From Escherichia coli (lineage in GTDB: Bacteria > Pseudomonadota > Gammaproteobacteria > Enterobacterales > Enterobacteriaceae), in assembly GCF_029227855.1 (NCBI RefSeq), contig NZ_CP074356.1: a stretch of DNA of 64,000 nucleotides; one strand, written 5' to 3'. Position 1 is the first letter of the stretch. Each line of letters begins with the position of its first letter. The position numbers were made by a program, and so were the translations under genes. The notes under the pieces were generated by a model. That model made no database searches and was not told the origin of the DNA. It saw nothing but the letters and a program-made list of their open reading frames with translations. Shown in pieces: positions 1 to 21,018 of the stretch.

Positions 1-18
1 TCACAGTACCGACCTGAT

Positions 19-672
19 ATGCCGTTTTGGCGATTACAAGGCGACGGATTCTGGCAATTACACAATGCCGAGCTTTGCTCAACAGCAGGGAGCAGCCGAC
101 AACCGCCAGTGAAGGAACTGAACGAATACCACGTTGCAGGCGGTTTCGATGAACAGCACTACGCCCTGGTAACCGGCAATAAAAAACTCATCAATACTCT
201 GGCGCAACAGATACTCGAAGCGCACTTCACCGAGAGTATTCAGGAAGAAATTGCTGACGAGCTGGGTTTTGATCTCCAGCAAATCCGTAAACAGCGCGAC
301 CCGTTATTTCGCAAAAATGTATTACGCGCTTATAACTACCAGTGCGCGATATGTGGCTTTAATATGCGCCACGACGACACCACCGTCGCGCTGGAAGCGG
401 CGCATATAAAATGGAAACAGCACGGCGGCCCTTGTGAAATCCCCAATGGTCTGGCGCTTTGCGCAATACACCATAAAGCCTTTGATAAAGGATCGATTGG
501 CCTGGATGAAAATATGCGGGTACTGGTCTCGGATGCGGTAAACGGCGGAGGGATCGTTGAGAGATTATTCTGGGATTTTGACGGGAAAACTATTGCGTTG
601 CCACAGGTGCGTAAAAATTACCCTTTTGAGGGGTTTGTGGAGTGGCATCGAAAAGAGGTTTTTAGGGGGTGA
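19..672 (+). CDS. HNH (His-Me finger) endonuclease-domain protein; possibly 5'-partial, since the frame is open from position 1
   Basis: Translation carries a CxxC...H...N...H pattern (YQCAICGF ... EAAHIKW ... NGLALCAIHHKAFDKG). No in-frame stop between position 1 and the ATG at 19, so the N-terminus may lie outside the window. Confidence 0.6.
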   Translation: MPFWRLQGDGFWQLHNAELCSTAGSSRQPPVKELNEYHVAGGFDEQHYALVTGNKKLINTLAQQILEAHFTESIQEEIADELGFDLQQIRKQRDPLFRKNVLRAYNYQCAICGFNMRHDDTTVALEAAHIKWKQHGGPCEIPNGLALCAIHHKAFDKGSIGLDENMRVLVSDAVNGGGIVERLFWDFDGKTIALPQVRKNYPFEGFVEWHRKEVFRG

Positions 673-984
673 GGTAGCCATTATATATCTTTCACCTAGG
701 ATTTTAAATGTAATAGATAAAGTATTTTCTGACACCGAAAGTAGTATTTATGAGTACATAGCCACAAATCAATTTTAAAATCTCAATATAAAATACGTTT
801 ACAAATATTCTAGTCAGAGTAAATATATATTCATTATAAGAGAATCCAATTATTAACCAATCGAAATTACAAATTAAAAAACAATTGGCATGTTGAATTG
901 TACACTAATTTATATACATAGTAAATTTACATCTATTCATGATATAATTATCGTGATATCAATTCATTAATCAGGAAAATCATA

Positions 985-1287
985 ATGGAATTGTTAAATA
1001 CTTATGATGATAAAGAAACAGCTGAAATATTTTTTGAAAAAATAGACGGAGAGAAAAGATTAGCAAGTGAGAGAGATGCTACAGAAACAGTCTATAACCT
1101 CTTCGGGCAACCAACATGGAAAAACTTTTATCTTCTTGATATGTTTAACCTAAAAGAGTTACAAGGGATTATAGAGTGTAGAAAAAATGGACAGCCGTTC
1201 GACCAGGAACGACACAGGGAAATAATAAAAATGCTTGAATATGCAGCAAAATCGTTTGACCTAATTATTCCTGCACATTGGCGATAA
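985..1287 (+). CDS. hypothetical small protein (100 aa), convergent with the Res-like gene
   Basis: ORF with ATG start preceded by a very AT-rich putative promoter region (672..984); no recognisable motifs. Confidence 0.4.
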   Translation: MELLNTYDDKETAEIFFEKIDGEKRLASERDATETVYNLFGQPTWKNFYLLDMFNLKELQGIIECRKNGQPFDQERHREIIKMLEYAAKSFDLIIPAHWR

Positions 1288-1290
1288 TAT

Positions 1291-1321
1291 CTGTTCCATA
1301 TCTCACAGAGATATGGAACAG
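1291..1321. terminator. perfect 14-bp inverted repeat between convergent genes; likely bidirectional intrinsic terminator
   Basis: ctgttccatatctc / aca loop / gagatatggaacag read directly; sits between the stop of the + strand ORF (1287) and the stop of the minus-strand Res-like gene (1334). Confidence 0.5.
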
Positions 1322-1333
1322 AATCATAATTAT

Positions 1334-4300
1334 TTACTCGCTAACCATCTTACTGAATAACTTCTCCAGATAAACGGGGCCTGTATCCTCAATAAAAAGC
1401 ACATTTCTGGCTTCCAGATTTTCTTTTGAGTCAGGTACGTTTACTAAGTCAACATAACAAGTTTCAGAAACAATAAATGCACTTAATGATAAGTTATCAT
1501 CCGATAATTTATGTTCAAGATTCTTAATTTCTTTATATAATCCGAACTTCGGATCATCAAGATTAAGATTGCGAATGCCTTTTGGATCAATAAGACTTAG
1601 CCATTGTTTACCACTTTTATCATCGACTAACCACAATAAGAAATCCGGATAAAAATTACCCGCAGTAGCAAAGCCCAGGCCTTTATTTTTAGAATCCGCA
1701 TTTCTTAGCAGATATAAACTTTTATCACCAATAATTTTCTGCCCTTTTGTCGAATCAACAAAAGACTGAAGATCCTGAACAAAAGTAATCTCGCTTGGCG
1801 CACCAAGTGCTGCCGGTCGCATTTTTAGCGGTATATTGGCATTTTTTTCAATCGAAAGAAGCGGGTAATAGAGATGTTTATCAAAGGTAATAGCAACCAT
1901 CCCGGATGCACTCCAGGATTTTGCTTTACCGATTTCGCCGTCGATGACCAATTGTTGTAATTGTTCCAGCCGACTGGCATAAGCCAACCCATCATCAGTT
2001 TCTTCGATCTCGAAATGGTACATTTTGATCATACCAGGATCATCTTCTTTCACCTGCGTGACTTCATAAAACTGACCTTCATAAGCATTTTTCAAGGTGT
2101 TGTAAAAGCGATCAGTATAATCAGTCAGCAGACGAAGCATAATATCTTCCTGCTTAGCAATATCTGCATATTGCTTAATCTCAAGCTCTGAAGCTGGAAT
2201 CAAAAGGGTATACCAACTATTTCCGATCTTTGTCTTACCGGTACAAAAGTCGATCAAACGTTGTTTATCCACACGTAAATTTGACCAGCCGCGTTGTAGT
2301 TTATAATTCTGAATGGCGAGATAAAGCCGATCAAAATCAAATGCACTAATGATTTTATAATCTAACTTCGCTTCATTGCGCACGTTAACCGGAGTATTGT
2401 CCCCTTTTCTGCTGGTATCAATCGACTCAAGTTTCGGGTATAAGTCCAGCTTAATATGCGGCTGCTTAATTTTCCCCTGAAAATCAGCAGGAACTTCATA
2501 CAATTCGGGAAAATAGACACGTTTAAAGCCGAGTCTTTGATTATCTTTATAACCATCTTTAAGCTTAAGTGTTTTAAGCCTGGTTGCTGGCATATTTGGC
2601 CGAGTTTCAAAATTCAGCTCAAGGATCTCGTCACTTGGCGTAATCCCTTCATCTTCCAGGTATTGTTTAAAGGTTGCCATGTAATCGGCACGTACACCGA
2701 ATACATTCAGTGTCTCTAATTTTTCCAGATGCAACCCTTTCGGACGCTCACCGGGTGTACTGCGTTTCAAAGAATAATTGCGACCTTTAAGGCGTACGCC
2801 ACGACCAAATAACTGAATGATCTGTGAACCTTCTCCACGGCCCATATTGAGCAATCCCATCGTTGAGACGCGCCAACTGCTCCAGCCTTCAGTAAATTTT
2901 CGCGAGCCGATCAAAATATGTAGTCGCGAGTCTTTGTCATTTAACGTATGAAAGAGTGACTTTGCAAAATCATCTCTCTGATAATCAAATGTCGTATCCT
3001 CTTCACACATTTTGTAAAGAGACGGTGCATCACCAATATTGATAAGGCCAAACGGTTCGGCCTCACCAACCTGTAATGCCAGTTCACCTTTACTGCCTAT
3101 TAAATTCAGAACTCGCAGTCGCTGACCAGAGTGAGTGGTGTTAAACAAGCGAGAAAGAATATCTGCGTAGATATCTTCCGGAGCGTTCATTAGTGCAGTA
3201 AAGCGATTTTCAAAAATGTTACGCTCTTTGGTATCGAGGATTCGCGCTTTATTTTTAATGAGATCGTTAATCCACGCTTTTGCCTGCGTTTCGTGGTTTA
3301 AAAACCATGCTAAAAAACGCAATACTGCGTGAATGTCTGAATCTTCACCACTTACCGTATTACCGACAAAAACCCACAGCGGTTTTTCGATATTAAATTC
3401 ACTTAATTTTTCTTTATTCTTATTGAATAAATATTGTTGCTGATAAAAGCTGAGCAAACACGCGGTAAAATACTCATACCGACGCTCATCTTTTTTATCC
3501 TCTTCAGGATTAAGGTTAAGAATCAGTGATTCTTTACCATAACCATCCTCATAGAAGAATTTATAGGAGTAATCGAACAGAATCGATTTTCCATAGACCT
3601 CTCGCGTCGCCTGAATACGCGCATCTCGTTTTTCTTCGCTGGTTAATGCTATTTGCGCTAACTCTTCTTCGTTCAGTTTACCTAAGGCCGTTGTTTCAAA
3701 AAGCAGCTTTGCTTTTTTCTTCTGAATTTCTGTTTCAACTGCCTCAACATTATTGCCACCGGCTACTGCCTGGCCAAAAGTTGCTGAATATTCAAACGCA
3801 AATCCGTCACGTGTTAATTTGTCACGACGGCGCATCCAGGCACCAGCAGCACTTCCGGTGCCTTTATGCCCTTCATCAATCAGAACCAGATTGTTGCCTT
3901 CAAATGCCTCAACGGCAACAGTTTTGTCACCCATTTCATCGGCAAGTTTATTGATATCAATAACTTCAATCGTGCCTTTGAAGGGCGCAGATTTACTCTT
4001 ATCGAATAACTGGTATTGGGTAAATCCTGAGTTTTCCAGCTCATCTAAATGTTGCTTCGACAGGCGTTCATCCGGCGTAAGCAGGATGATTTTATCCGGG
4101 TAATGGTGGGTATTACCGTTCTGGAAATAATGTAAATATTGCAAAATATTGACATGCAATAGCAGTGTTTTACCCGAACCGGTAGCGTTCCAGTATGCAA
4201 GTTTATTCAAGTCATCTAGAATGTATGATTTGAACTGATTAGCCCGGTCTTTTGCTGTTTTATCATTTTCAGCATTGTATGCTGCCAGCTCGTTATTTAG

Positions 4301-4714
4301 CCCATCGAGTAATTGCTGTTTACGATTGAAGTACCAGTCCAGGTAGATCTCGGTAAACAGAAGCGACAAGTACTGAAAATATTTCATATTCAGCACGGTG
4401 TCTTCTTTGCGATTACGGTGCTCAGTTATCTGCTGCCAGTGCTGTACGATATTGAGATCGTAACGACGCAGTTCATCGAGATCGATAAGATCGACCTCGA
4501 ATAAATAGTTACTCAGCTCATGGAAGAACAAGCTTTGGCCATCTTCATGGATGCCTTCAAAGCGATCTTCACCTAACCGATTTTTTAAACCTTGCAATGT
4601 GCCATCTTTAAAAAAATGGAACATAAAGCGGTTCAAAACCAGTTGCTTATGAAAGCTCAGTTTGCTGTTTGTCTCTTTTTTAACAGCTTTACCGGTGGTC
4701 GGTTTTTTAGCCAT
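1334..4714 (-). CDS. Type III restriction Res-like protein: superfamily-2 helicase with C-terminal PD-(D/E)xK nuclease motif (1126 aa)
   Basis: Walker A ATGSGKT, motif II LVLIDEGH, motif III SAT (EYSATFGQ), motif VI QLFGRGVRL; C-terminal NFYPDFLLWLV ... LSLIDPKG fits PD...DxK. ATG at 4714 lies 2 nt after the upstream gene's stop, with a GGAGGAGG Shine-Dalgarno inside that gene's 3' end. Confidence 0.8.
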   Translation of the reverse strand: MAKKPTTGKAVKKETNSKLSFHKQLVLNRFMFHFFKDGTLQGLKNRLGEDRFEGIHEDGQSLFFHELSNYLFEVDLIDLDELRRYDLNIVQHWQQITEHRNRKEDTVLNMKYFQYLSLLFTEIYLDWYFNRKQQLLDGLNNELAAYNAENDKTAKDRANQFKSYILDDLNKLAYWNATGSGKTLLLHVNILQYLHYFQNGNTHHYPDKIILLTPDERLSKQHLDELENSGFTQYQLFDKSKSAPFKGTIEVIDINKLADEMGDKTVAVEAFEGNNLVLIDEGHKGTGSAAGAWMRRRDKLTRDGFAFEYSATFGQAVAGGNNVEAVETEIQKKKAKLLFETTALGKLNEEELAQIALTSEEKRDARIQATREVYGKSILFDYSYKFFYEDGYGKESLILNLNPEEDKKDERRYEYFTACLLSFYQQQYLFNKNKEKLSEFNIEKPLWVFVGNTVSGEDSDIHAVLRFLAWFLNHETQAKAWINDLIKNKARILDTKERNIFENRFTALMNAPEDIYADILSRLFNTTHSGQRLRVLNLIGSKGELALQVGEAEPFGLINIGDAPSLYKMCEEDTTFDYQRDDFAKSLFHTLNDKDSRLHILIGSRKFTEGWSSWRVSTMGLLNMGRGEGSQIIQLFGRGVRLKGRNYSLKRSTPGERPKGLHLEKLETLNVFGVRADYMATFKQYLEDEGITPSDEILELNFETRPNMPATRLKTLKLKDGYKDNQRLGFKRVYFPELYEVPADFQGKIKQPHIKLDLYPKLESIDTSRKGDNTPVNVRNEAKLDYKIISAFDFDRLYLAIQNYKLQRGWSNLRVDKQRLIDFCTGKTKIGNSWYTLLIPASELEIKQYADIAKQEDIMLRLLTDYTDRFYNTLKNAYEGQFYEVTQVKEDDPGMIKMYHFEIEETDDGLAYASRLEQLQQLVIDGEIGKAKSWSASGMVAITFDKHLYYPLLSIEKNANIPLKMRPAALGAPSEITFVQDLQSFVDSTKGQKIIGDKSLYLLRNADSKNKGLGFATAGNFYPDFLLWLVDDKSGKQWLSLIDPKGIRNLNLDDPKFGLYKEIKNLEHKLSDDNLSLSAFIVSETCYVDLVNVPDSKENLEARNVLFIEDTGPVYLEKLFSKMVSE

Positions 4715-4716
4715 TC

Positions 4717-6513
4717 TTAAACCTCCTCCGCAAACATCAGGTTCAAGAATTCAGGTTCGATCTGGCGGATTTTCAGGCTACGAACAATCTCGCCGTCTTC
4801 TTCATCAACAGTAAAGGCGGTAGGTAAGTTATGATCGCCATTGATATAGATAACGTCGAACGTGTTTTCTTTTGCATATAAATCGAATCGGTTGGCATAT
4901 TTATTCAATTCTTCATAACCGATCTTGTCGCAATCGCGCCACAGAATAAGGGTACGCTCGCCTGTTGGTAGCATTCCTTCAACACGCACATAGCCACGTT
5001 CGATATTGGATTCGATGGATTTCACATGTAAACCAATGAGATAGTTGAAAGTTTCAACTAAATCGATGTTTTTACGCTCAGTGGCACCGGCGGAATCCGT
5101 CGCAATATCCATTTCGTAGTTAAATGGTTTTTTGAAATTATCAGTACTGAGTAGTGAACCTTTGCTTTCTGTTTCAAGCATATATTTTATTAAATACTCA
5201 TTTGCTACTGATTCATTCACTGTATCAAAAAGATCTTTTATTTCTTTTTGTTGTTCAAATCGAAGGCTATTTAATACATCTTCGTAACTTTCTATTTTCA
5301 TAACTTTAAGTATATGAGATGAGCCTGTCGTTGAATCCATAGCTTTACCATCTTTCCAATTGCTACTGAATATAACTTTTCTCAACCTGCTTAAAGTTAC
5401 ATTTTGTGCATACTCCCCCTGTTCAACAAGTATATATTTCCTTGAACCCGCATCCTTACGATTCAACTCTATGACTGAGTGGCCACTTGTTCCTGAACCA
5501 GCAAAAAAATCTAATATTATCTCATTTTTATTATGAGATGCACTCCCAATTAAATAATTATATAAAGAAGTTGAGTGACAATAAGGAAAATCAATTCCAA
5601 GATGAGTTGTTTGAGTTTTTCCTTTTTTAGCATCCTGAATTATTGATGTTATTTGCTTTTTAGCGTCAGCATATAAATATGCTTTCTGTCTAGGTTGCGT
5701 TGTTTCATCAACACCAAATAGTATATCCCCCTTATCCATCATATCTTTTAATGTTTCTGGGGTACGAGAAAAACCATTTGGTGGCATAGCGCATGGTTTC
5801 CCGGTAACTGGATGAATTAATGGTATATAGAATTTCTTGTCAGTCCTTGGCTCTGGGGCACGGAGGCTGACACTCTGGTACACTCGACCTTTCTCATCGA
5901 TATATTTGTAAGCTTGTTCACCTCCAGTAAGTTTTTTATTCTTTGTTACCCAATCATAAAATTTTTTCTTTGCTTCACTGTTAATTACAGGATATTTATT
6001 CTTAATTAATTTTGCATATTCGAGTATTTCTAATACATTCTCATTTTTCTTATTAATAGAAATCATGTTCTTTGTAAAACAAGTAGTATATTCATGTTGA
6101 ATCGCAATGCCACTACCACCATTCATGGGATTGCGTTTATCCCAAATAATTGTCCCTGCATCGATAAGACCTAACTGTTTATTAATTAAATAAAGTCGCT
6201 CATATTCATTTTCATCAATATGACAAAAAAATACACCATTTTCACTGAGTAAATTTTTAACAAAAAGCAAACGGCTATCCATCATACTCAGCCAACTTGA
6301 ATGCTTAAAGCTATTTTTATATAAAAAACCACTAGTATCTGTGTTATATGGTGGATCTATATGGACACAATCAATTACGGAATTATATTTTTTCTTCAAA
6401 AGATTTAACGCTTGATAATTATCACCATTAATAAAAACGCCATCAACATTATCGTCAATATCATTGATACTATTTAATATTTTTTCCTTAGATCTCCGTT
6501 TAAATGAGATAAA
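4717..6513 (-). CDS. beta-class N6-adenine/N4-cytosine DNA methyltransferase (Mod-like); no canonical start, probably joined to the upstream ORF by a -1 frameshift
   Basis: Motif IV IDPPYN followed later by motif I LDFFAGSGTSG (order IV then I is beta class). The ORF track starts at a TTG (6399), but the frame is open upstream to 6513 and encodes a conserved-looking pre-motif segment (DGVFINGDNYQALNLL). No ATG/GTG between the stop at 6514..6516 and 6399. Confidence 0.75.
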   Translation of the reverse strand, partial: FISFKRRSKEKILNSINDIDDNVDGVFINGDNYQALNLLKKKYNSVIDCVHIDPPYNTDTSGFLYKNSFKHSSWLSMMDSRLLFVKNLLSENGVFFCHIDENEYERLYLINKQLGLIDAGTIIWDKRNPMNGGSGIAIQHEYTTCFTKNMISINKKNENVLEILEYAKLIKNKYPVINSEAKKKFYDWVTKNKKLTGGEQAYKYIDEKGRVYQSVSLRAPEPRTDKKFYIPLIHPVTGKPCAMPPNGFSRTPETLKDMMDKGDILFGVDETTQPRQKAYLYADAKKQITSIIQDAKKGKTQTTHLGIDFPYCHSTSLYNYLIGSASHNKNEIILDFFAGSGTSGHSVIELNRKDAGSRKYILVEQGEYAQNVTLSRLRKVIFSSNWKDGKAMDSTTGSSHILKVMKIESYEDVLNSLRFEQQKEIKDLFDTVNESVANEYLIKYMLETESKGSLLSTDNFKKPFNYEMDIATDSAGATERKNIDLVETFNYLIGLHVKSIESNIERGYVRVEGMLPTGERTLILWRDCDKIGYEELNKYANRFDLYAKENTFDVIYINGDHNLPTAFTVDEEDGEIVRSLKIRQIEPEFLNLMFAEEV

Positions 6514-7838
6514 TTAACTGTTGCAAACTTGAGCAACTCCACATCAGAGGTAGATGGCTTCTCATCTAAGATGCCTAATTCAATCCATTCTTGGACTATT
6601 TTTTCATTATTAATTATTTCACTGTAAAACTCTGAACTTATTTTGTCCATAGTAATATAGTAATTACTTGAAACAACAAACTTCTTCTTAGTCCAAAGTT
6701 TCTTCTGGAAATTCTCAATTTGTGCCAAAAATGCAATGAGTTCCAGCGCAACAGTACGCAAACATTGAATCATGCGCAATTGTTTCTCAATATTGGCAAA
6801 CACTTCTGCATTTTGCACATTATCGAGATTCATTACTTCATTTTTAATATAAAAATCCAGTTCGTTAGTTAAAAAACCACCGAGATCTTTATGAATAAAG
6901 TAGTCTGCTGTATTACGCTGGGTATAAGTTGTAAGATGACGCTCCAACTCTGTACGTGACGGATTTTTTTCTGTTGGCGCACGTTTAGCAAGATCAACCC
7001 AATGCTGTTGAACTGTTTTATCAGCCAGAATTGTTGAAATAGCGGACTGCACTAAAGCATCCTGCTTAGTGCCCTTTTTCATGGCCTTATATTCGAAGTG
7101 AATAACTAACTCTTCTGTTTCAACGAGTTTACCGTCAACCACAGATGAAGTTTTCACCACTTCTACTGGCTTATATTCTTGTTCGTACTCATCGCCTTCT
7201 TCATCAATTTTGGTACGAACATGCGGCTCAATAAGTACAAAGCAGCGATCTAATTCATTATCTTTACGGTTATCTTTTGCTGTGTCCGCTGCGAGCAATT
7301 TAAAGCTAACTTTACGACCCTCATCTAATTTAAATGAATAATTAGCAAAGTTTTCACCGCTTTTAATGTAGTACTGGTCCTTATTTGCCCAGTGCAACAT
7401 CACTTCTTCGCCAGAATAAGGGATGGCGTAGGTATTACCTTTATAACGGCGTTTGCTGATAAAATCGCCGTTGTCATAATAACGCGAAAAGAAAGTCAGC
7501 AGATGGGAAAATACTGCATTTTCATGCTCATTTGCTCCGGATGCCATAGCCGCCAGTTGCTTTTTAAGCTCCTGTACTTTCGGGCTATCAGCAGGGTCCA
7601 CACCCGCATCAGTTGCCGCTTTTATTGTCAGTTGCAACTGATGTTCTAATTCTGATTTATTGGCATTTCCTGCATCCGCCAGCGCAGACTGGATTTTGGC
7701 CTTCAGCTTATTATCCAGATAGTCGTTAATTTCATCAGCACGTGCATTTAAAATACGATAAATACCGAAATCCAGTTCTGGTCGATCAATCTGAAAAATT
7801 TCTTTTAGCTTCTTAACTAATTCGTTGTACTTACTCAT
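6474..7838 (-). CDS. uncharacterised protein (454 aa from ATG at 7838); possible N-terminal part of a fused methyltransferase
   Basis: Long ORF with no motifs I recognise. Lies 20 bp downstream of the SNF2 gene stop; its 3' end overlaps the open methyltransferase frame (6474..6513). Confidence 0.7.
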   Translation of the reverse strand: MSKYNELVKKLKEIFQIDRPELDFGIYRILNARADEINDYLDNKLKAKIQSALADAGNANKSELEHQLQLTIKAATDAGVDPADSPKVQELKKQLAAMASGANEHENAVFSHLLTFFSRYYDNGDFISKRRYKGNTYAIPYSGEEVMLHWANKDQYYIKSGENFANYSFKLDEGRKVSFKLLAADTAKDNRKDNELDRCFVLIEPHVRTKIDEEGDEYEQEYKPVEVVKTSSVVDGKLVETEELVIHFEYKAMKKGTKQDALVQSAISTILADKTVQQHWVDLAKRAPTEKNPSRTELERHLTTYTQRNTADYFIHKDLGGFLTNELDFYIKNEVMNLDNVQNAEVFANIEKQLRMIQCLRTVALELIAFLAQIENFQKKLWTKKKFVVSSNYYITMDKISSEFYSEIINNEKIVQEWIELGILDEKPSTSDVELLKFATVNLSHLNGDLRKKY

Positions 7839-7858
7839 TATTTTCTCTTTCAAATCAA

Positions 7859-16129: not shown

Positions 16130-18976
16130 TCAGAAAGTCACATTCAGCGTGGCCTGACCGTTATAACCTTCAGCGCTGCTGCCGCTGACACTGTGGGCAT
16201 AACCGGCCTGAACGCCCAGGGTGATATTTTCCCGGACACGGGCTTCCAGTCCGGCCTGCAGGTCCAGTGACGTGCCATTCCGGGACGGTGAGAACGTCAT
16301 GTTACTGCCGGCGGCGGCTGTCCCCATGCTCATGTCACCCCGGGAACTGAAGGTGCGGATAACAGAAGGCTGTACCCACCAGTTCACCGGCAGTTCACGC
16401 ACACGGTGTTTTGCACTGTCGCGCAGGGTGTCACGGGATGAGGTGCCTTCACCAAAGCTCATATCGTTGTGGCTGCCCAGACGGAAACCGGCACGCACAT
16501 GTTGTGCACTGCCATGCCCGAACTTCACATAACCGGCGTTATCCTGGCCGTCATCCAGGGAAAGTCCCTGCCAGGTATACTGCAGTTGTGGCTCCAGCAT
16601 CAGGTTGTCAGTGATACTGAAGGGCAGACCGGTTTCCAGTGAGCCCAGCCAGCCCCAGCCGCGGGCGCGGAAGTCGTTATTGTCCGATGACGCTTTCATG
16701 CTGTGGCGGGTTCCCTGTGCCACAATGTCAGCCCACAGGCCGGAGGACGTGTGTGTCAGATTCAGGTATCCGCCCAGGCTGCCGGCATCATCCCGGACCG
16801 TGCCGGCGCGGGAACCGTCATCATCCTTAACATCAACGGAAGAATGGCCTGCGGCACCATGCACCCCTGTCGTCAGAGACATACCGGCAACCTCTGTTCT
16901 GAGCAGGTCACCCTCCAGACGGACGAAGCCATAGCTGCCGCTGCTTTCCGGCGTGGCTCCACGGGCAATACCGCCGTTGTTATCGTGACCGAGATGACCG
17001 CCCTGAATGCTGAGACGGACGCTGTTATTTTCACCGTTTACACCGGTCTGATGGCTGCGGGAGCCTGCCAGAATCCGGTCATAGTCCATTGCCTGTGTCA
17101 GCATGGAGGCATACAGGGGGACTTCAGCACGATAAGCATTTTCACTGCGCAGGTACCAGTCTTCATCGCTGTCACGGTTCAGGGTGTAGTTAAAGGCGCC
17201 GGCCTGAAGCGGGCGACTCAGGGCAAATGCACCTTCTTCTGTGGTGGCGCCATTCTGTGCATCCACAACCCGGATACCCTGTCCGGAGGTTGCCACCCCG
17301 AGGTTACTGTTTCCGACATTTGTAAACGCAAGCCAGGTTTTGCCGGTTGCCTGACCACCATTAATCACCAGCTGGTCAGAGGTATTGCTGCCATCAAGGC
17401 GAACACGCATATTGATGGTGCCACCCTGACCGGTGAGGTTACTGGTGGTCAGTTTATGGAACGTTACCGGGGAGTCGCCTTTTGCAACAGCACGGCTCAG
17501 CGCGGCATCCGGTGTCGTCTGATTATCAAAGCGAATCTCCCCTGCGTTAACAATATCGCCGGTACTGACCACATCGCCATTCAGTACCATGCTGGCACCT
17601 TTACTGAGCTGTGTTCTGCCACTCAGACTTCCCCCGGCAGCCAGCGTCAGTGTTCCACGATGTCCGACAGTGGTGTTGCTGGCCAGTCCTCCGGCATTAA
17701 CCGTAAAGCTGCCGCCATTTTCCAGCAGCAGTCCGCTGGCCTGACCGGATGTGCCATCAATACTGAACTTACCGCTGGCATTGGTCCCCTCAACAGTGGC
17801 ACCACTGTCTGCAATCAGGGCACTACCGGATGTCATGGTGACATCTGTTGCCTTACCACCGGCAGACACTGCCAGGGTTCCGCCGTCATCCACCAGTGTT
17901 TTCCAGGCTGAATGGCCCTCCAGTACATCCAGGCGACCACCGGACTCCAGAACAACACCGTCAGCATTACCGTTTTCCACAGTGAAATTGCCCAGACGGT
18001 TGCTGCCGGTGACGGTTGCCGCCGTACTGGTGACCAGTGCGCCTCCCTGCTTCAGGGTGACATTCGTGGCTGTACCACCGGCGTTCACCTGCAGTTTGCC
18101 TTTCTGGTTAACGGTGGTGAAATCCGCCAGACCACCTTCCTTGACAATCTGCCAGCCGTCACTGTTTACAACCGTGTCAGAGGCTGTGCCTCCGTTGTGC
18201 ACATACTGGTAACCGCCATTCAGTGTGGTATCCAGCGCATGCCCGTGTACCGTCTGGTCGCCGCCGGCATAAACCACAGTGGTATTTGCTGTTCCTTCAG
18301 CAGCCACAATCTGACGACCATTTTCATTGATAGTGGTACGTACGGCATTTCCGCGAACAAACTGCCCGGTATCACCATTTTCTGCATCCGGTCCCCCTTC
18401 CGCGCCGGTATTCACAACCGTGTCGGTTGCCATTGCGCCGGATTTGACGGCCTGCCAGCCCTTCTCATTAATGACGGTACCCGTTGCAATCCCGCCTTCA
18501 TGTACCCACTGCTCACCGCCGTTCAGAGTGGTGTTCACTGCCTGCCCCTGAAGGCTCTGTCCGCCTCCGGCACTGATAACCGTGTCTGAAACGCTTCCTC
18601 CGGCATTCACTCTCTGAAGACCACCACCGGTGACAGTAGTGTTGTTGGCGATACCGCCATTTTGTATCCATTGTCCGCCGGTATTGGCCTCGTTATCCGG
18701 CCCATACTCCAGACCGGTACTGATGGTCATTCCGTTGGCCGTACCGAAGACAATCTGGTTGTCATGATTTGTCAGTGTTCCGCCGCTCACGGTTTCTCCC
18801 GCCTGTACGACCGTGTCAGCAGCCAGTACCGGGACTGACGTGACAGCAGCAAGAGACAGCGCAACCGCCACACCGGTGCGTTTTCCCCGTGAGCGCGCCA
18901 GTTCGGAAGCCACCACCAGGGTGCCCGTAATGTGATTCCATACCAGCCTGTAGCTGGTGTTCAGATGTCGTTTCAT
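16130..18976 (-). CDS. flu: antigen 43 (AIDA-I-type self-associating autotransporter adhesin)
   Basis: 948 aa; N-terminal extended signal peptide [15 protein letters not shown], repetitive beta-helix passenger, C-terminal beta-barrel ending …ATLNVTF. Confidence 0.9.
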
Positions 18977-19194
18977 CAGCTTTTCCTTACAGAGGGTGAA
19001 TAAAAAAGCCGGTACCCACAAATGTGGATACCGGCAGGTACAAAACAGCATGGTCAGATAAAGTGGTTTTTCCCGGACATAAATGCTTCCCCTCTCTCAT
19101 CCGCCAGAGAAGTATCAGTCCGTTGTGTGCAATTCCGTTCTGCATGATGAAGAGATTCAGCTGCCTTTTCGCAGGCCATTAACCACTATAAACG

Positions 19195-19230
19195 ATCGAT
19201 AGCAACGATCGATACCTGTTTTATCGATCG
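19195..19230. promoter_or_regulatory. three clustered GATC sites upstream of agn43 (Dam/OxyR phase-variation switch)
   Basis: GATC at 19195, 19208 and 19227 in the leader region of flu; the arrangement matches the known agn43 switch. Confidence 0.6.
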
Positions 19231-19347
19231 TTTTATTCTATTGATTACAAGGCGGTCACGCAAGAGAAACAGGAGGAGTATGAGGGGTTTGTGTCATGTT
19301 TTCAGTTGGTTAACGTAATGTTATCAGGCATTTCCCTGGCAGACTGT

Positions 19348-20220
19348 TCAGAAGAAAATCCAGTTCCATACAGCGCGGGCAACAGAGACCACCGTGTCAC
19401 GGACGGCACGCAGAACCGTACGGGCAACAGAGGCAACACAGACGCTCTCCGCCGTGTCAAATATCCGGTCCACCGCACCGGTAAACTGTTCACGGGCCTG
19501 AGCGCGGACAGATTCCGTGCGCAGCTCGTCCTGCAGGCGGGTCATCAGGGGACTGGCGGCATGGTCGGGAAGTGCTGTCATTAGCGCACTGACCAGCGTA
19601 TCCAGTTCCCAGCCGGTGCGGGCCGATACGGCAACAACCGGATGTACGGGCCGGAACAGCCGGAATACCGCATCTGTTTTCTCACGAATGTTCTGTGCCT
19701 GTGCGGGAGAAGGCTGAATGCCGGCCATATCCCATTCATGGCAGGGCTCCGTTTTGTCGGCCTGCGTCACCACAAACAGCACCTGCTGATGTCCCCGGTG
19801 CAGGATGTGTCGCCAGAAATACTCATCCACAGACAGGGCACGGTCATCGGCTTTAATCAGCCACAGTACCAGGTCAAGTTCAGGCAGAATGTCACGGTAC
19901 AGGGCTTCATACTCTGCATCCCTGTCCCGGCTCTCGCCCACCCCGGGCAGGTCAGTGATAATCATGCTGTGACCGTGGCCACTCAGACGGAAGCGCCGCA
20001 CTTCCCGGGTGCCGGCGTGAACATCACTGACCGGGGTGACCTCCCCCTGAAACAGTGCATTACAGAGTGAGGATTTACCGGCCCCGCTTTTACCCATAAT
20101 GCCAATCACGGGTTCGTGACTGGTGAGTTTGCGCAGATGTTCCAGGATGTGACGGGAAAGTGAGTAAGGCAGGGAGGGGAGCGGTTTTTCAATTGCCTCA
20201 ATGGCATCAGACGGATTCAT
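19348..20220 (-). CDS. YeeP/YfjP/YkfA-family putative GTPase
   Basis: P-loop GIMGKSGAGKSS and a downstream DLPG motif; start at MNPSDAIEA. Confidence 0.75.
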   Translation of the reverse strand: MNPSDAIEAIEKPLPSLPYSLSRHILEHLRKLTSHEPVIGIMGKSGAGKSSLCNALFQGEVTPVSDVHAGTREVRRFRLSGHGHSMIITDLPGVGESRDRDAEYEALYRDILPELDLVLWLIKADDRALSVDEYFWRHILHRGHQQVLFVVTQADKTEPCHEWDMAGIQPSPAQAQNIREKTDAVFRLFRPVHPVVAVSARTGWELDTLVSALMTALPDHAASPLMTRLQDELRTESVRAQAREQFTGAVDRIFDTAESVCVASVARTVLRAVRDTVVSVARAVWNWIFF

Positions 20221-20304
20221 ACATGTATTCCCGGTGAAAAAAGACAAAACCCCCGCACACCGGAAAGGTGGTGGGGGACTCACGGAGATAATATATGTCT
20301 GAAA

Positions 20305-21018
20305 TTATCTGGAATGTCGGTACCTTTTATACTCTTCAACAATCAGGTCATGCAGCATTTCGCCGGTACTGAGTCTTCTGACCCTCGATAATTCTTTGAG
20401 CTGCGCCCTGGTTTCTGCGTCAAGAAAAAACTGTACATTGACTTTATCTTCCTGCATTTTTTTGTACTTGCGCTGCGCCTTGGCCTTATTGAAACTGTTT
20501 CTGAAATTTTTTATATCGTCAGGTGAGGTGAGTGGACAGGTAACCCATATGTCAAATGAAAGGTGAATTGCGTGGTAAATATCAGCAGAACCAGGAAAAC
20601 TGGCCAGTTTTTCCAGTGCAATATTTTTTCCCTTCAAATAATTCCATGTCCATATGCATTCATGTTCGTTCTCCGGGAGGAGGTAACTGAAAGGACTCTT
20701 TGATTTAAATGCCCGCATCCATCTGTCTTTGGTCTGGATTATCCACTCATCCCGCAAATTCTTATCAGAAAGAATATCGAGAACTCTGAGTATTTGTCTG
20801 AACTGTGTCGATGAGTCCGACGGGAAGGCATTCCCTTCTAAATACTCTTCTTTAAGATACAGTTTATTCTTTTGAAGCAAGTCTGCGCTTATTTTTGTCC
20901 TGTTATTCTGGATAAACTGCATCAACAGATACCAGGAAAATAAGCATGCACGTTCACTGCCCGCGATCCAGGATATTTTTTCCAGGGGCACCAGGGAGGC
21001 CAGTGCCTTCAGACGCAT
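20305..21018 (-). CDS. hypothetical protein (237 aa)
   Basis: ORF only. Confidence 0.5.
   Translation of the reverse strand: MRLKALASLVPLEKISWIAGSERACLFSWYLLMQFIQNNRTKISADLLQKNKLYLKEEYLEGNAFPSDSSTQFRQILRVLDILSDKNLRDEWIIQTKDRWMRAFKSKSPFSYLLPENEHECIWTWNYLKGKNIALEKLASFPGSADIYHAIHLSFDIWVTCPLTSPDDIKNFRNSFNKAKAQRKYKKMQEDKVNVQFFLDAETRAQLKELSRVRRLSTGEMLHDLIVEEYKRYRHSR

Follow-up and report, generated by a model that had tools for sequence, protein, structure and literature searches.

The window, that is, the whole 64,000-nucleotide stretch of Escherichia coli DNA analysed here, carries on its minus strand an intact gene for an Ag43/Cah-family autotransporter adhesin (18976..16130, 948 aa), and the gene is annotated as such in matching genomes. 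The protein matches the NCBIfam Ag43/Cah equivalog model NF033177 over its full length (1-948 of 948) with 1991 bits, the cut-off being 1200, and presents the ESPR signal, the AIDA repeats, the autochaperone (AC_1) and the beta-barrel (Pfam Autotransporter). It is 74% identical to K-12 Flu (1039 aa), the main difference being a passenger domain 91 residues shorter. The initial annotation had placed the start of the gene at 18976, which is correct, with the ATG at 18976..18974 on the minus strand. An extended ORF of 973 aa from 19051 was discarded, as it does not use the annotated start and would run through the terminator described below. Upstream, a YeeP-like GTPase gene (19348..20220, minus strand) marks the island backbone; it is context and lies outside the switch. 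In K-12 MG1655, agn43 (flu, b2000) likewise follows a yeeP-type GTPase gene in a CP4-44-like island, although yeeP is a pseudogene in K-12 and intact in the window.

The window is about 99.9% identical to ETEC E. coli E24377A over 56 kb. A 501-bp regulatory query taken from it was 100% identical to an E. coli dog isolate and found matches in 4195 of the 5426 complete E. coli genomes searched, at 7,654 places in all, the median number per genome being two; matches covering at least 80% of the query occurred in about 3,400 of the 5,426. Neither dam nor oxyR lies within the 64-kb window. Each of these genes is present in 5425 of the 5426 complete E. coli genomes.

Motif search and reading of the sequence located GATC tetramers at 19194-19197, 19207-19210 and 19226-19229. 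The initial annotation had given these sites as 19195, 19208 and 19227; they are real, each position being one higher than the tetramer start and corresponding to the methylatable A of the plus strand. Read along the gene, GATC-I (19229..19226, minus strand) is the promoter-proximal Dam site, homologous to the K-12 site at L001:1818, and transcription is predicted to start at its G (19229, +1). GATC-II (19210..19207, minus strand, +20..+23) follows 19 bp later and GATC-III (19197..19194, minus strand, +33..+36) a further 13 bp later, so that by homology the three sites begin at leader positions +1, +20 and +33. They are situated upstream of the flu start, as had been stated, at 253, 234 and 221 nt before the ATG. 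The arrangement had also been described as the known one, and this is borne out for the spacing, since the 19/13-bp intervals are the same as in K-12 agn43, where the GATCs start at 1818, 1837 and 1850 of L001. Outside the cluster, the closest GATC on the upstream side is 1.7 kb away and the closest on the downstream side 7.5 kb.

A putative promoter precedes GATC-I on the minus strand. Its -10 hexamer, TAGAAT (19235..19240), is identical in K-12 and in window-type alleles, as is its distance to GATC-I, and the complete stretch AATAGAATAAAACGATC, comprising the -10 hexamer, a five-base gap and GATC-I, is the same in the window and in K-12. The -35 hexamer, TTGCGT (19258..19263), is separated from it by a 17-bp spacer and is the positional homologue of TTGTCC in K-12; it matches the consensus at 3/6 positions, compared with 4/6 for K-12. 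A generic sigma-70 promoter scan called nothing here, which was attributed to the -35 hexamer having only 3/6 of the consensus. The reading of that scan as absence of a promoter was set aside, given that both hexamers occupy positions shared with K-12 and conserved from allele to allele. In addition, both the isrC annotation and the Rfam model start at this point of the predicted layout. Wallecha et al. 2002 reportedly found that K-12 transcription starts at the G of GATC-I and that OxyR(C199S) protects positions -16 to +42. By homology, we take these to be 19229 and 19245..19188 in the window.

The sites had been assigned to the agn43 leader, and rightly so. A leader RNA of the IsrC/IS102 family is matched by the Rfam covariance model RF00124 at 19231..18995 on the minus strand, with 73.6 bits against a gathering threshold of 46, an E-value of 2.8e-12 and the model covered from 1 to 206 of 206. 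The intrinsic terminator that ends the leader was found independently (18998..19035, minus strand); it consists of a 12-bp stem (19035..19008) followed by TTTTTTATTC, is conserved in K-12, is more stable than any other element of the folded leader and ends about 20 nt before the start codon. The K-12 counterpart is bounded in the same way, as RefSeq has isrC begin at the G of GATC-I (1818) and end at 2012, inside the T-run of the terminator just before flu. The ribosome-binding site AAGGA (18984..18988, minus strand) was read from the sequence and is also conserved with K-12.

The long leader contains an ORF of 41 codons (19053-19179, minus strand, +51..+176), which is intact in most alleles. 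It was considered as a conserved leader peptide and rejected, as its variable sites are distributed 11/6/6 by codon position, with no third-position enrichment, and several alleles truncate or frameshift it. The ORF is thus probably not a leader peptide.

Comparison of eleven genome loci revealed two leader types, a short one represented by K-12, with GATC-I about 222 nt before the ATG, and a long one represented by the window, with about 253 nt. The window leader is 31 nt longer than that of K-12 (253 vs 222 nt). Blocks common to both types are the promoter, the three GATCs with their immediate flanks, and the terminator with the ribosome-binding site, whereas the window and K-12 are unrelated at +5..+16 and mostly so from about +38 to the terminator. 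Between GATC-I and GATC-II, for instance, K-12 reads ATCTAT where the window has AAAACA. A MAFFT pairwise alignment with K-12 introduced a 13-bp gap between the GATCs, placing GATC-III of the window on GATC-II of K-12; it was rejected because the ungapped alignment keeps the three sites in register and the spacing is identical in every allele. The O157:H7 cah gene (a calcium-binding Ag43 homologue) and other long-leader Ag43/Cah alleles (L009, L003-L008) have the same leader type, half-sites and GATC positions as the window and an ATG distance within 1 nt; they differ from it by point differences only, concentrated in the promoter spacer and at +25..+29. The literature search found no experiment on this particular allele, the published dissection being that of the K-12 (short-leader) allele, and for methylome data on the long leader it returned generic mentions only.

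To locate OxyR sites, every 15-mer in the window was scored against the half-site consensus ATAGnTnnnAnCTAT, which has 10 specified positions and is quoted for gtr and opvAB (PMC2909390, PMC4856963). Scores of at least 8/10 were obtained at 20 positions in the 64 kb. Predicted half-site A, ATAGAATAAAACGAT (19227..19241, minus strand, -12..+3), scores 8/10, overlaps the -10 hexamer and has GATC-I as its right arm. Predicted half-site C, ATCGTTGCTATCGAT (19195..19209, minus strand, +21..+35), also scores 8/10, and its left and right arms are GATC-II and GATC-III. A third 8/10 match, at +17, represents the same palindrome in a register displaced by 4 bp, which leaves two independent half-sites of at least 8/10 at the switch. 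Half-sites A and C are 32 bp apart and form the only pair of this quality at a spacing of 21-23 or 31-33 bp in the whole window; a centre-to-centre spacing of 32 bp is canonical for reduced OxyR (PMC4856963). The K-12-type allele has the same two 8/10 half-sites at the same spacing. The assignment of -12..+3 and +21..+35 is a motif-level reading, and the binding is predicted.

A 22-bp site of the oxidised type, from -2 to +35, was considered and discarded, its first half-site scoring 2/10 in the window type. The 32-bp register was preferred since it gives 8/10 in both leader types. It would also account for all three GATCs mattering and for the tolerance of the divergent +5..+16, which would then be the spacer between half-sites.

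Natural variation was studied in 128 regulatory regions, obtained from genome loci and from a metagenome scan anchored on the terminator and hence independent of the GATCs. All three GATCs at the 19/13 spacing are kept in 122 of these 128 alleles, and GATC-I in 126. The long leader type makes up 109 of the 128 sampled alleles, with 69 distinct 130-nt sequences, and nucleotide diversity was calculated by block for this set. Upstream of the promoter it amounts to 0.218, falling to 0.015 in the -35 hexamer, rising to 0.217 in the 17-bp promoter spacer (19241-19257) and dropping to 0.003 in the -10 hexamer. From +1 to GATC-II it is 0.013, at +25..+29 (19201-19205), the centre of half-site C, 0.266, in the GATC-III arm 0.013, and in the next 33 nt of the leader 0.031. 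The variable +25..+29 coincides with the unspecified centre of half-site C, while A30, which is specified in the OxyR consensus, is invariant. Such a footprint is what an OxyR site overlapping a promoter would be expected to leave. The window allele has the conserved state at every constrained position.

Some features of this variation are worth recording on their own. The 109 long-leader alleles contain 17 different pentamers at +25..+29 and 25 variants of the promoter spacer, in surroundings that are nearly invariant, and in all 19 short-leader alleles the pentamer is TTTAT. Switching rates may be tuned by these variable blocks, or the blocks may simply be under no constraint. A point change has removed one GATC in 6 of the 128 alleles (L015, L026, L031, L038, L061 and L085): GATC-II became AATC three times, GATC-I became AATC or GATG, and GATC-III became TATC, the last change improving the match to the OxyR consensus. 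These six are candidates for altered or biased switching, and assembly error is possible. In addition, a 1.5-kb contig labelled as a Collinsella MAG (L137) has the E. coli long-type agn43 promoter and leader, diverges inside the terminator stem and runs on into an unrelated small gene, without an Ag43 start. Most probably this is E. coli DNA that ended up in the wrong bin, and it may represent a deletion or recombinant allele.

With high confidence, the region is identified as the long-leader regulatory region of agn43 (flu/cah), containing the canonical Dam/OxyR phase-variation switch with all its cis elements intact. The elements, their homology, spacing and conservation, and the intact gene that follows them were observed directly. 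The initial annotation had called the switch apparently intact, and for the cis elements this is justified. Taken over by inference from work on the K-12 allele are the start site, the occupancy by OxyR, the dependence on methylation and the switching itself.

For that system, OxyR bound to the unmethylated site is known to repress agn43 and to protect the GATCs (OFF), while methylation prevents OxyR binding (ON); OxyR and Dam compete anew after replication, the states are heritable with switching at about 10^-3 per generation, and a dam mutant is locked OFF whereas an oxyR mutant is locked ON (PMC2909390, PMC3764049, PMC4872104, PMC13337833). Applied to the window, the sigma-70 promoter (-35 at 19263..19258, -10 at 19240..19235) would direct transcription from the G of the first GATC (19229). 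A reduced OxyR tetramer on the half-sites at -12..+3 and +21..+35 would extend over the -10 hexamer and the start site as well as the three GATCs, blocking RNA polymerase and shielding the GATCs from Dam; the sites would stay unmethylated and the gene OFF. Should Dam act on the GATCs before OxyR does, in the interval after replication, OxyR would not bind and transcription would follow, giving the ON state with methylated sites. Both states would be heritable, with low-frequency switching. Transcripts would then have to read through the intrinsic terminator that closes the leader, and the terminated ones would constitute the IsrC-type RNA.

The switch is a textbook element in a common allele, and as such already known. 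An intact switch predicts a mixed population of Ag43-ON cells, aggregating and biofilm-forming, and Ag43-OFF cells, a heterogeneity that bears on all phenotypic and expression work with the strain (PMC3764049). What is added here is the natural-variation footprint of the promoter and the OxyR half-sites, the list of alleles that have lost one GATC, and two side observations, on a GATC-purged island and on Citrobacter cargo.

Other phase-variation systems share parts of this design. The Dam/OxyR switches of Salmonella gtr (P22) and opvAB likewise have OxyR half-sites with GATC arms, in which methylation blocks OxyR (PMC2909390, PMC4856963). In gtr, a GATC pair 13 bp apart lies in one half-site (GATC1 at -110, GATC2 at -97), as in predicted half-site C (PMC2909390), and opvAB presents the 32-bp half-site spacing for reduced OxyR that is seen in the window (PMC4856963). 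Both differ in having three or four half-sites upstream of the promoter, with alternative OxyR positions that are activating or repressing, whereas the window has one predicted site that overlaps the -10 hexamer and the leader start and would be purely repressing. An arrangement of the gtr/opvAB type, with at least three separate half-sites and two mutually exclusive tetramer positions, was not found at the window switch. The pap Dam/Lrp switch also works with heritable methylation patterns and competition of Dam with a DNA-binding protein (PMC2909390, PMC13337833), but it relies on Lrp/PapI and on two alternative binding sites, and its two GATCs are separated by 102 bp.

Three other explanations of the GATC cluster were weighed. 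The one given most room, though still improbable, is that a switch is present and the long-leader variant is not equivalent to K-12, being biased or locked. The long type has no counterpart of the central K-12 element (CTAT at +10..+13), +5..+16 being unrelated between the types, and K-12 has a third, weaker half-site at -2..+13, with a score of 6-7/10, at which the window type scores lower. The -35 hexamer is also the weaker one, with its 3/6 against 4/6, and in opvAB single-base changes in OxyR half-sites shift the switching bias (PMC4856963). Nevertheless, the two strong half-sites and their 32-bp spacing are identical in both types, and the long type is far the commoner (109/128), with strongly conserved elements, which is hard to square with a dead switch. 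Moreover, three similarly spaced GATCs have been noted in both groups of agn43 alleles, which are expected to phase-vary (PMC2808357).

An even smaller probability was assigned to the palindromes being conserved mainly for a role in RNA, with GATC-II and GATC-III forming a 5' hairpin of the leader/IsrC RNA that serves stability, termination control or sRNA function, and Dam and OxyR being secondary. The Rfam IS102 consensus structure does pair two CGAUCG blocks, and the minimum free energy fold of the window leader pairs the 5' region, with the hypervariable +25..+29 in the loop; the centroid structure, on the other hand, drops this hairpin. GATC-I lies outside the hairpin and is equally conserved, the stem has about 6 bp in the window vs 9 bp in K-12 with no compensatory changes seen, and the natural G-to-A losses of GATC-II are uncompensated at GATC-III. 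A30 would be in the loop and is nonetheless invariant, being specified in the OxyR consensus, and the DNA-level mechanism is established for K-12 (PMC2909390, PMC4872104, PMC13337833). Finally, a functionless chance occurrence of the cluster has a negligible probability and is counted as excluded. Loose clusters, with three GATCs within 40 bp, are not rare, as the window has three of them. The exact K-12 pattern GATC-N15-GATC-N9-GATC, by contrast, occurs once in the 64 kb, on the strand of the gene, where 0.02 are expected (100 shuffles); the region is also homologous to the K-12 regulatory region, its sites are conserved in 122 of 128 alleles, and no further GATC is found in 9.3 kb around them.

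The scarcity of GATC around the switch was itself noticeable. From 11638 to 20964 (9.3 kb), the three switch sites are the only GATCs, where 33 would be expected, and none of the other 256 possible tetramers is as depleted in this interval; in the rest of the window the observed/expected ratio is 0.74. The depleted stretch contains a hypothetical gene, the YeeP-like GTPase, Ag43, DUF905, DUF932, antirestriction, RadC/JAB, YeeT, YeeU, CbtA, DUF5983 and DUF957 genes. Of 104 complete copies of the Ag43 coding sequence, 97 lack GATC altogether. Equal depletion is seen in L139, a related E. coli island that has no switch, with 4 GATCs observed vs 26.6 expected, and K-12 yeeS-yeeW is GATC-depleted too, a GATC-rich yeeR sitting between it and flu. 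Insulation of the switch from Dam/SeqA by GATC-free surroundings was considered as an explanation, and it is weakened by the equal depletion of the switchless island. Since that island and K-12 yeeS-yeeW are also depleted, the depletion belongs to the island family and not to the switch. It probably reflects the mobile history of the element rather than insulation, restriction avoidance by a mobile element being one possibility. The literature search on GATC depletion of these islands gave generic mentions only.

The flanks of this stretch were described by comparison with E24377A. Identity to that genome assigns to positions about 1-10750 a phosphorothioated-DNA-binding restriction endonuclease (about 1-672, plus strand), a DEAD/DEAH helicase (about 1334-4714, minus strand), a 1040-aa site-specific DNA methyltransferase (about 4717-7839, minus strand) and an SNF2-related protein (about 7860-10751, minus strand). 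It looks like a defence cluster directly adjoining the island module, and its GATC content is normal (52 observed vs 50.7 expected). On the other side, from about 21500 to 64000, the window is 99.3-100% identical to E24377A, with IS-related rearrangements. This part is a pathogenicity-island-like mosaic that contains IS66 copies, the fecIRABCDE ferric-citrate operon (about 32.4-41 kb), a group II intron and a virK/capU/lpxM(msbB-like)/polysaccharide deacetylase cluster.

A scan of species-representative genomes was also performed with the switch pattern, independently of promoter and gene. It turned up the switch in Citrobacter braakii and C. amalonaticus, where the same promoter, the GATC triplet with its 19/13 spacing and a pair of 8/10 OxyR half-sites come after a YeeP-like GTPase gene, the switch sites lying at 5108-5146 of L136 (minus strand) and 940-978 of L138 (plus strand), respectively. 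The genes that follow encode two small signal-peptide proteins of 154 and 157 aa and not Ag43, and DUF932, antirestriction and RadC genes come after them. Neither small protein has an NCBIfam match, and the first (154 aa) has no Pfam match either, while the second (157 aa) resembles the E. coli YfjT/YkfB family. Those E. coli homologues of the small proteins that were looked at do not have the switch. Tentatively, and with more doubt than belief on our part, the switch might belong to the backbone of YeeP-type (CP4-44-like) islands as a portable module, controlling whatever cargo follows the GTPase gene, rather than being specific to Ag43. Both the GATC-purged island and the Citrobacter cargo could merit a separate look.
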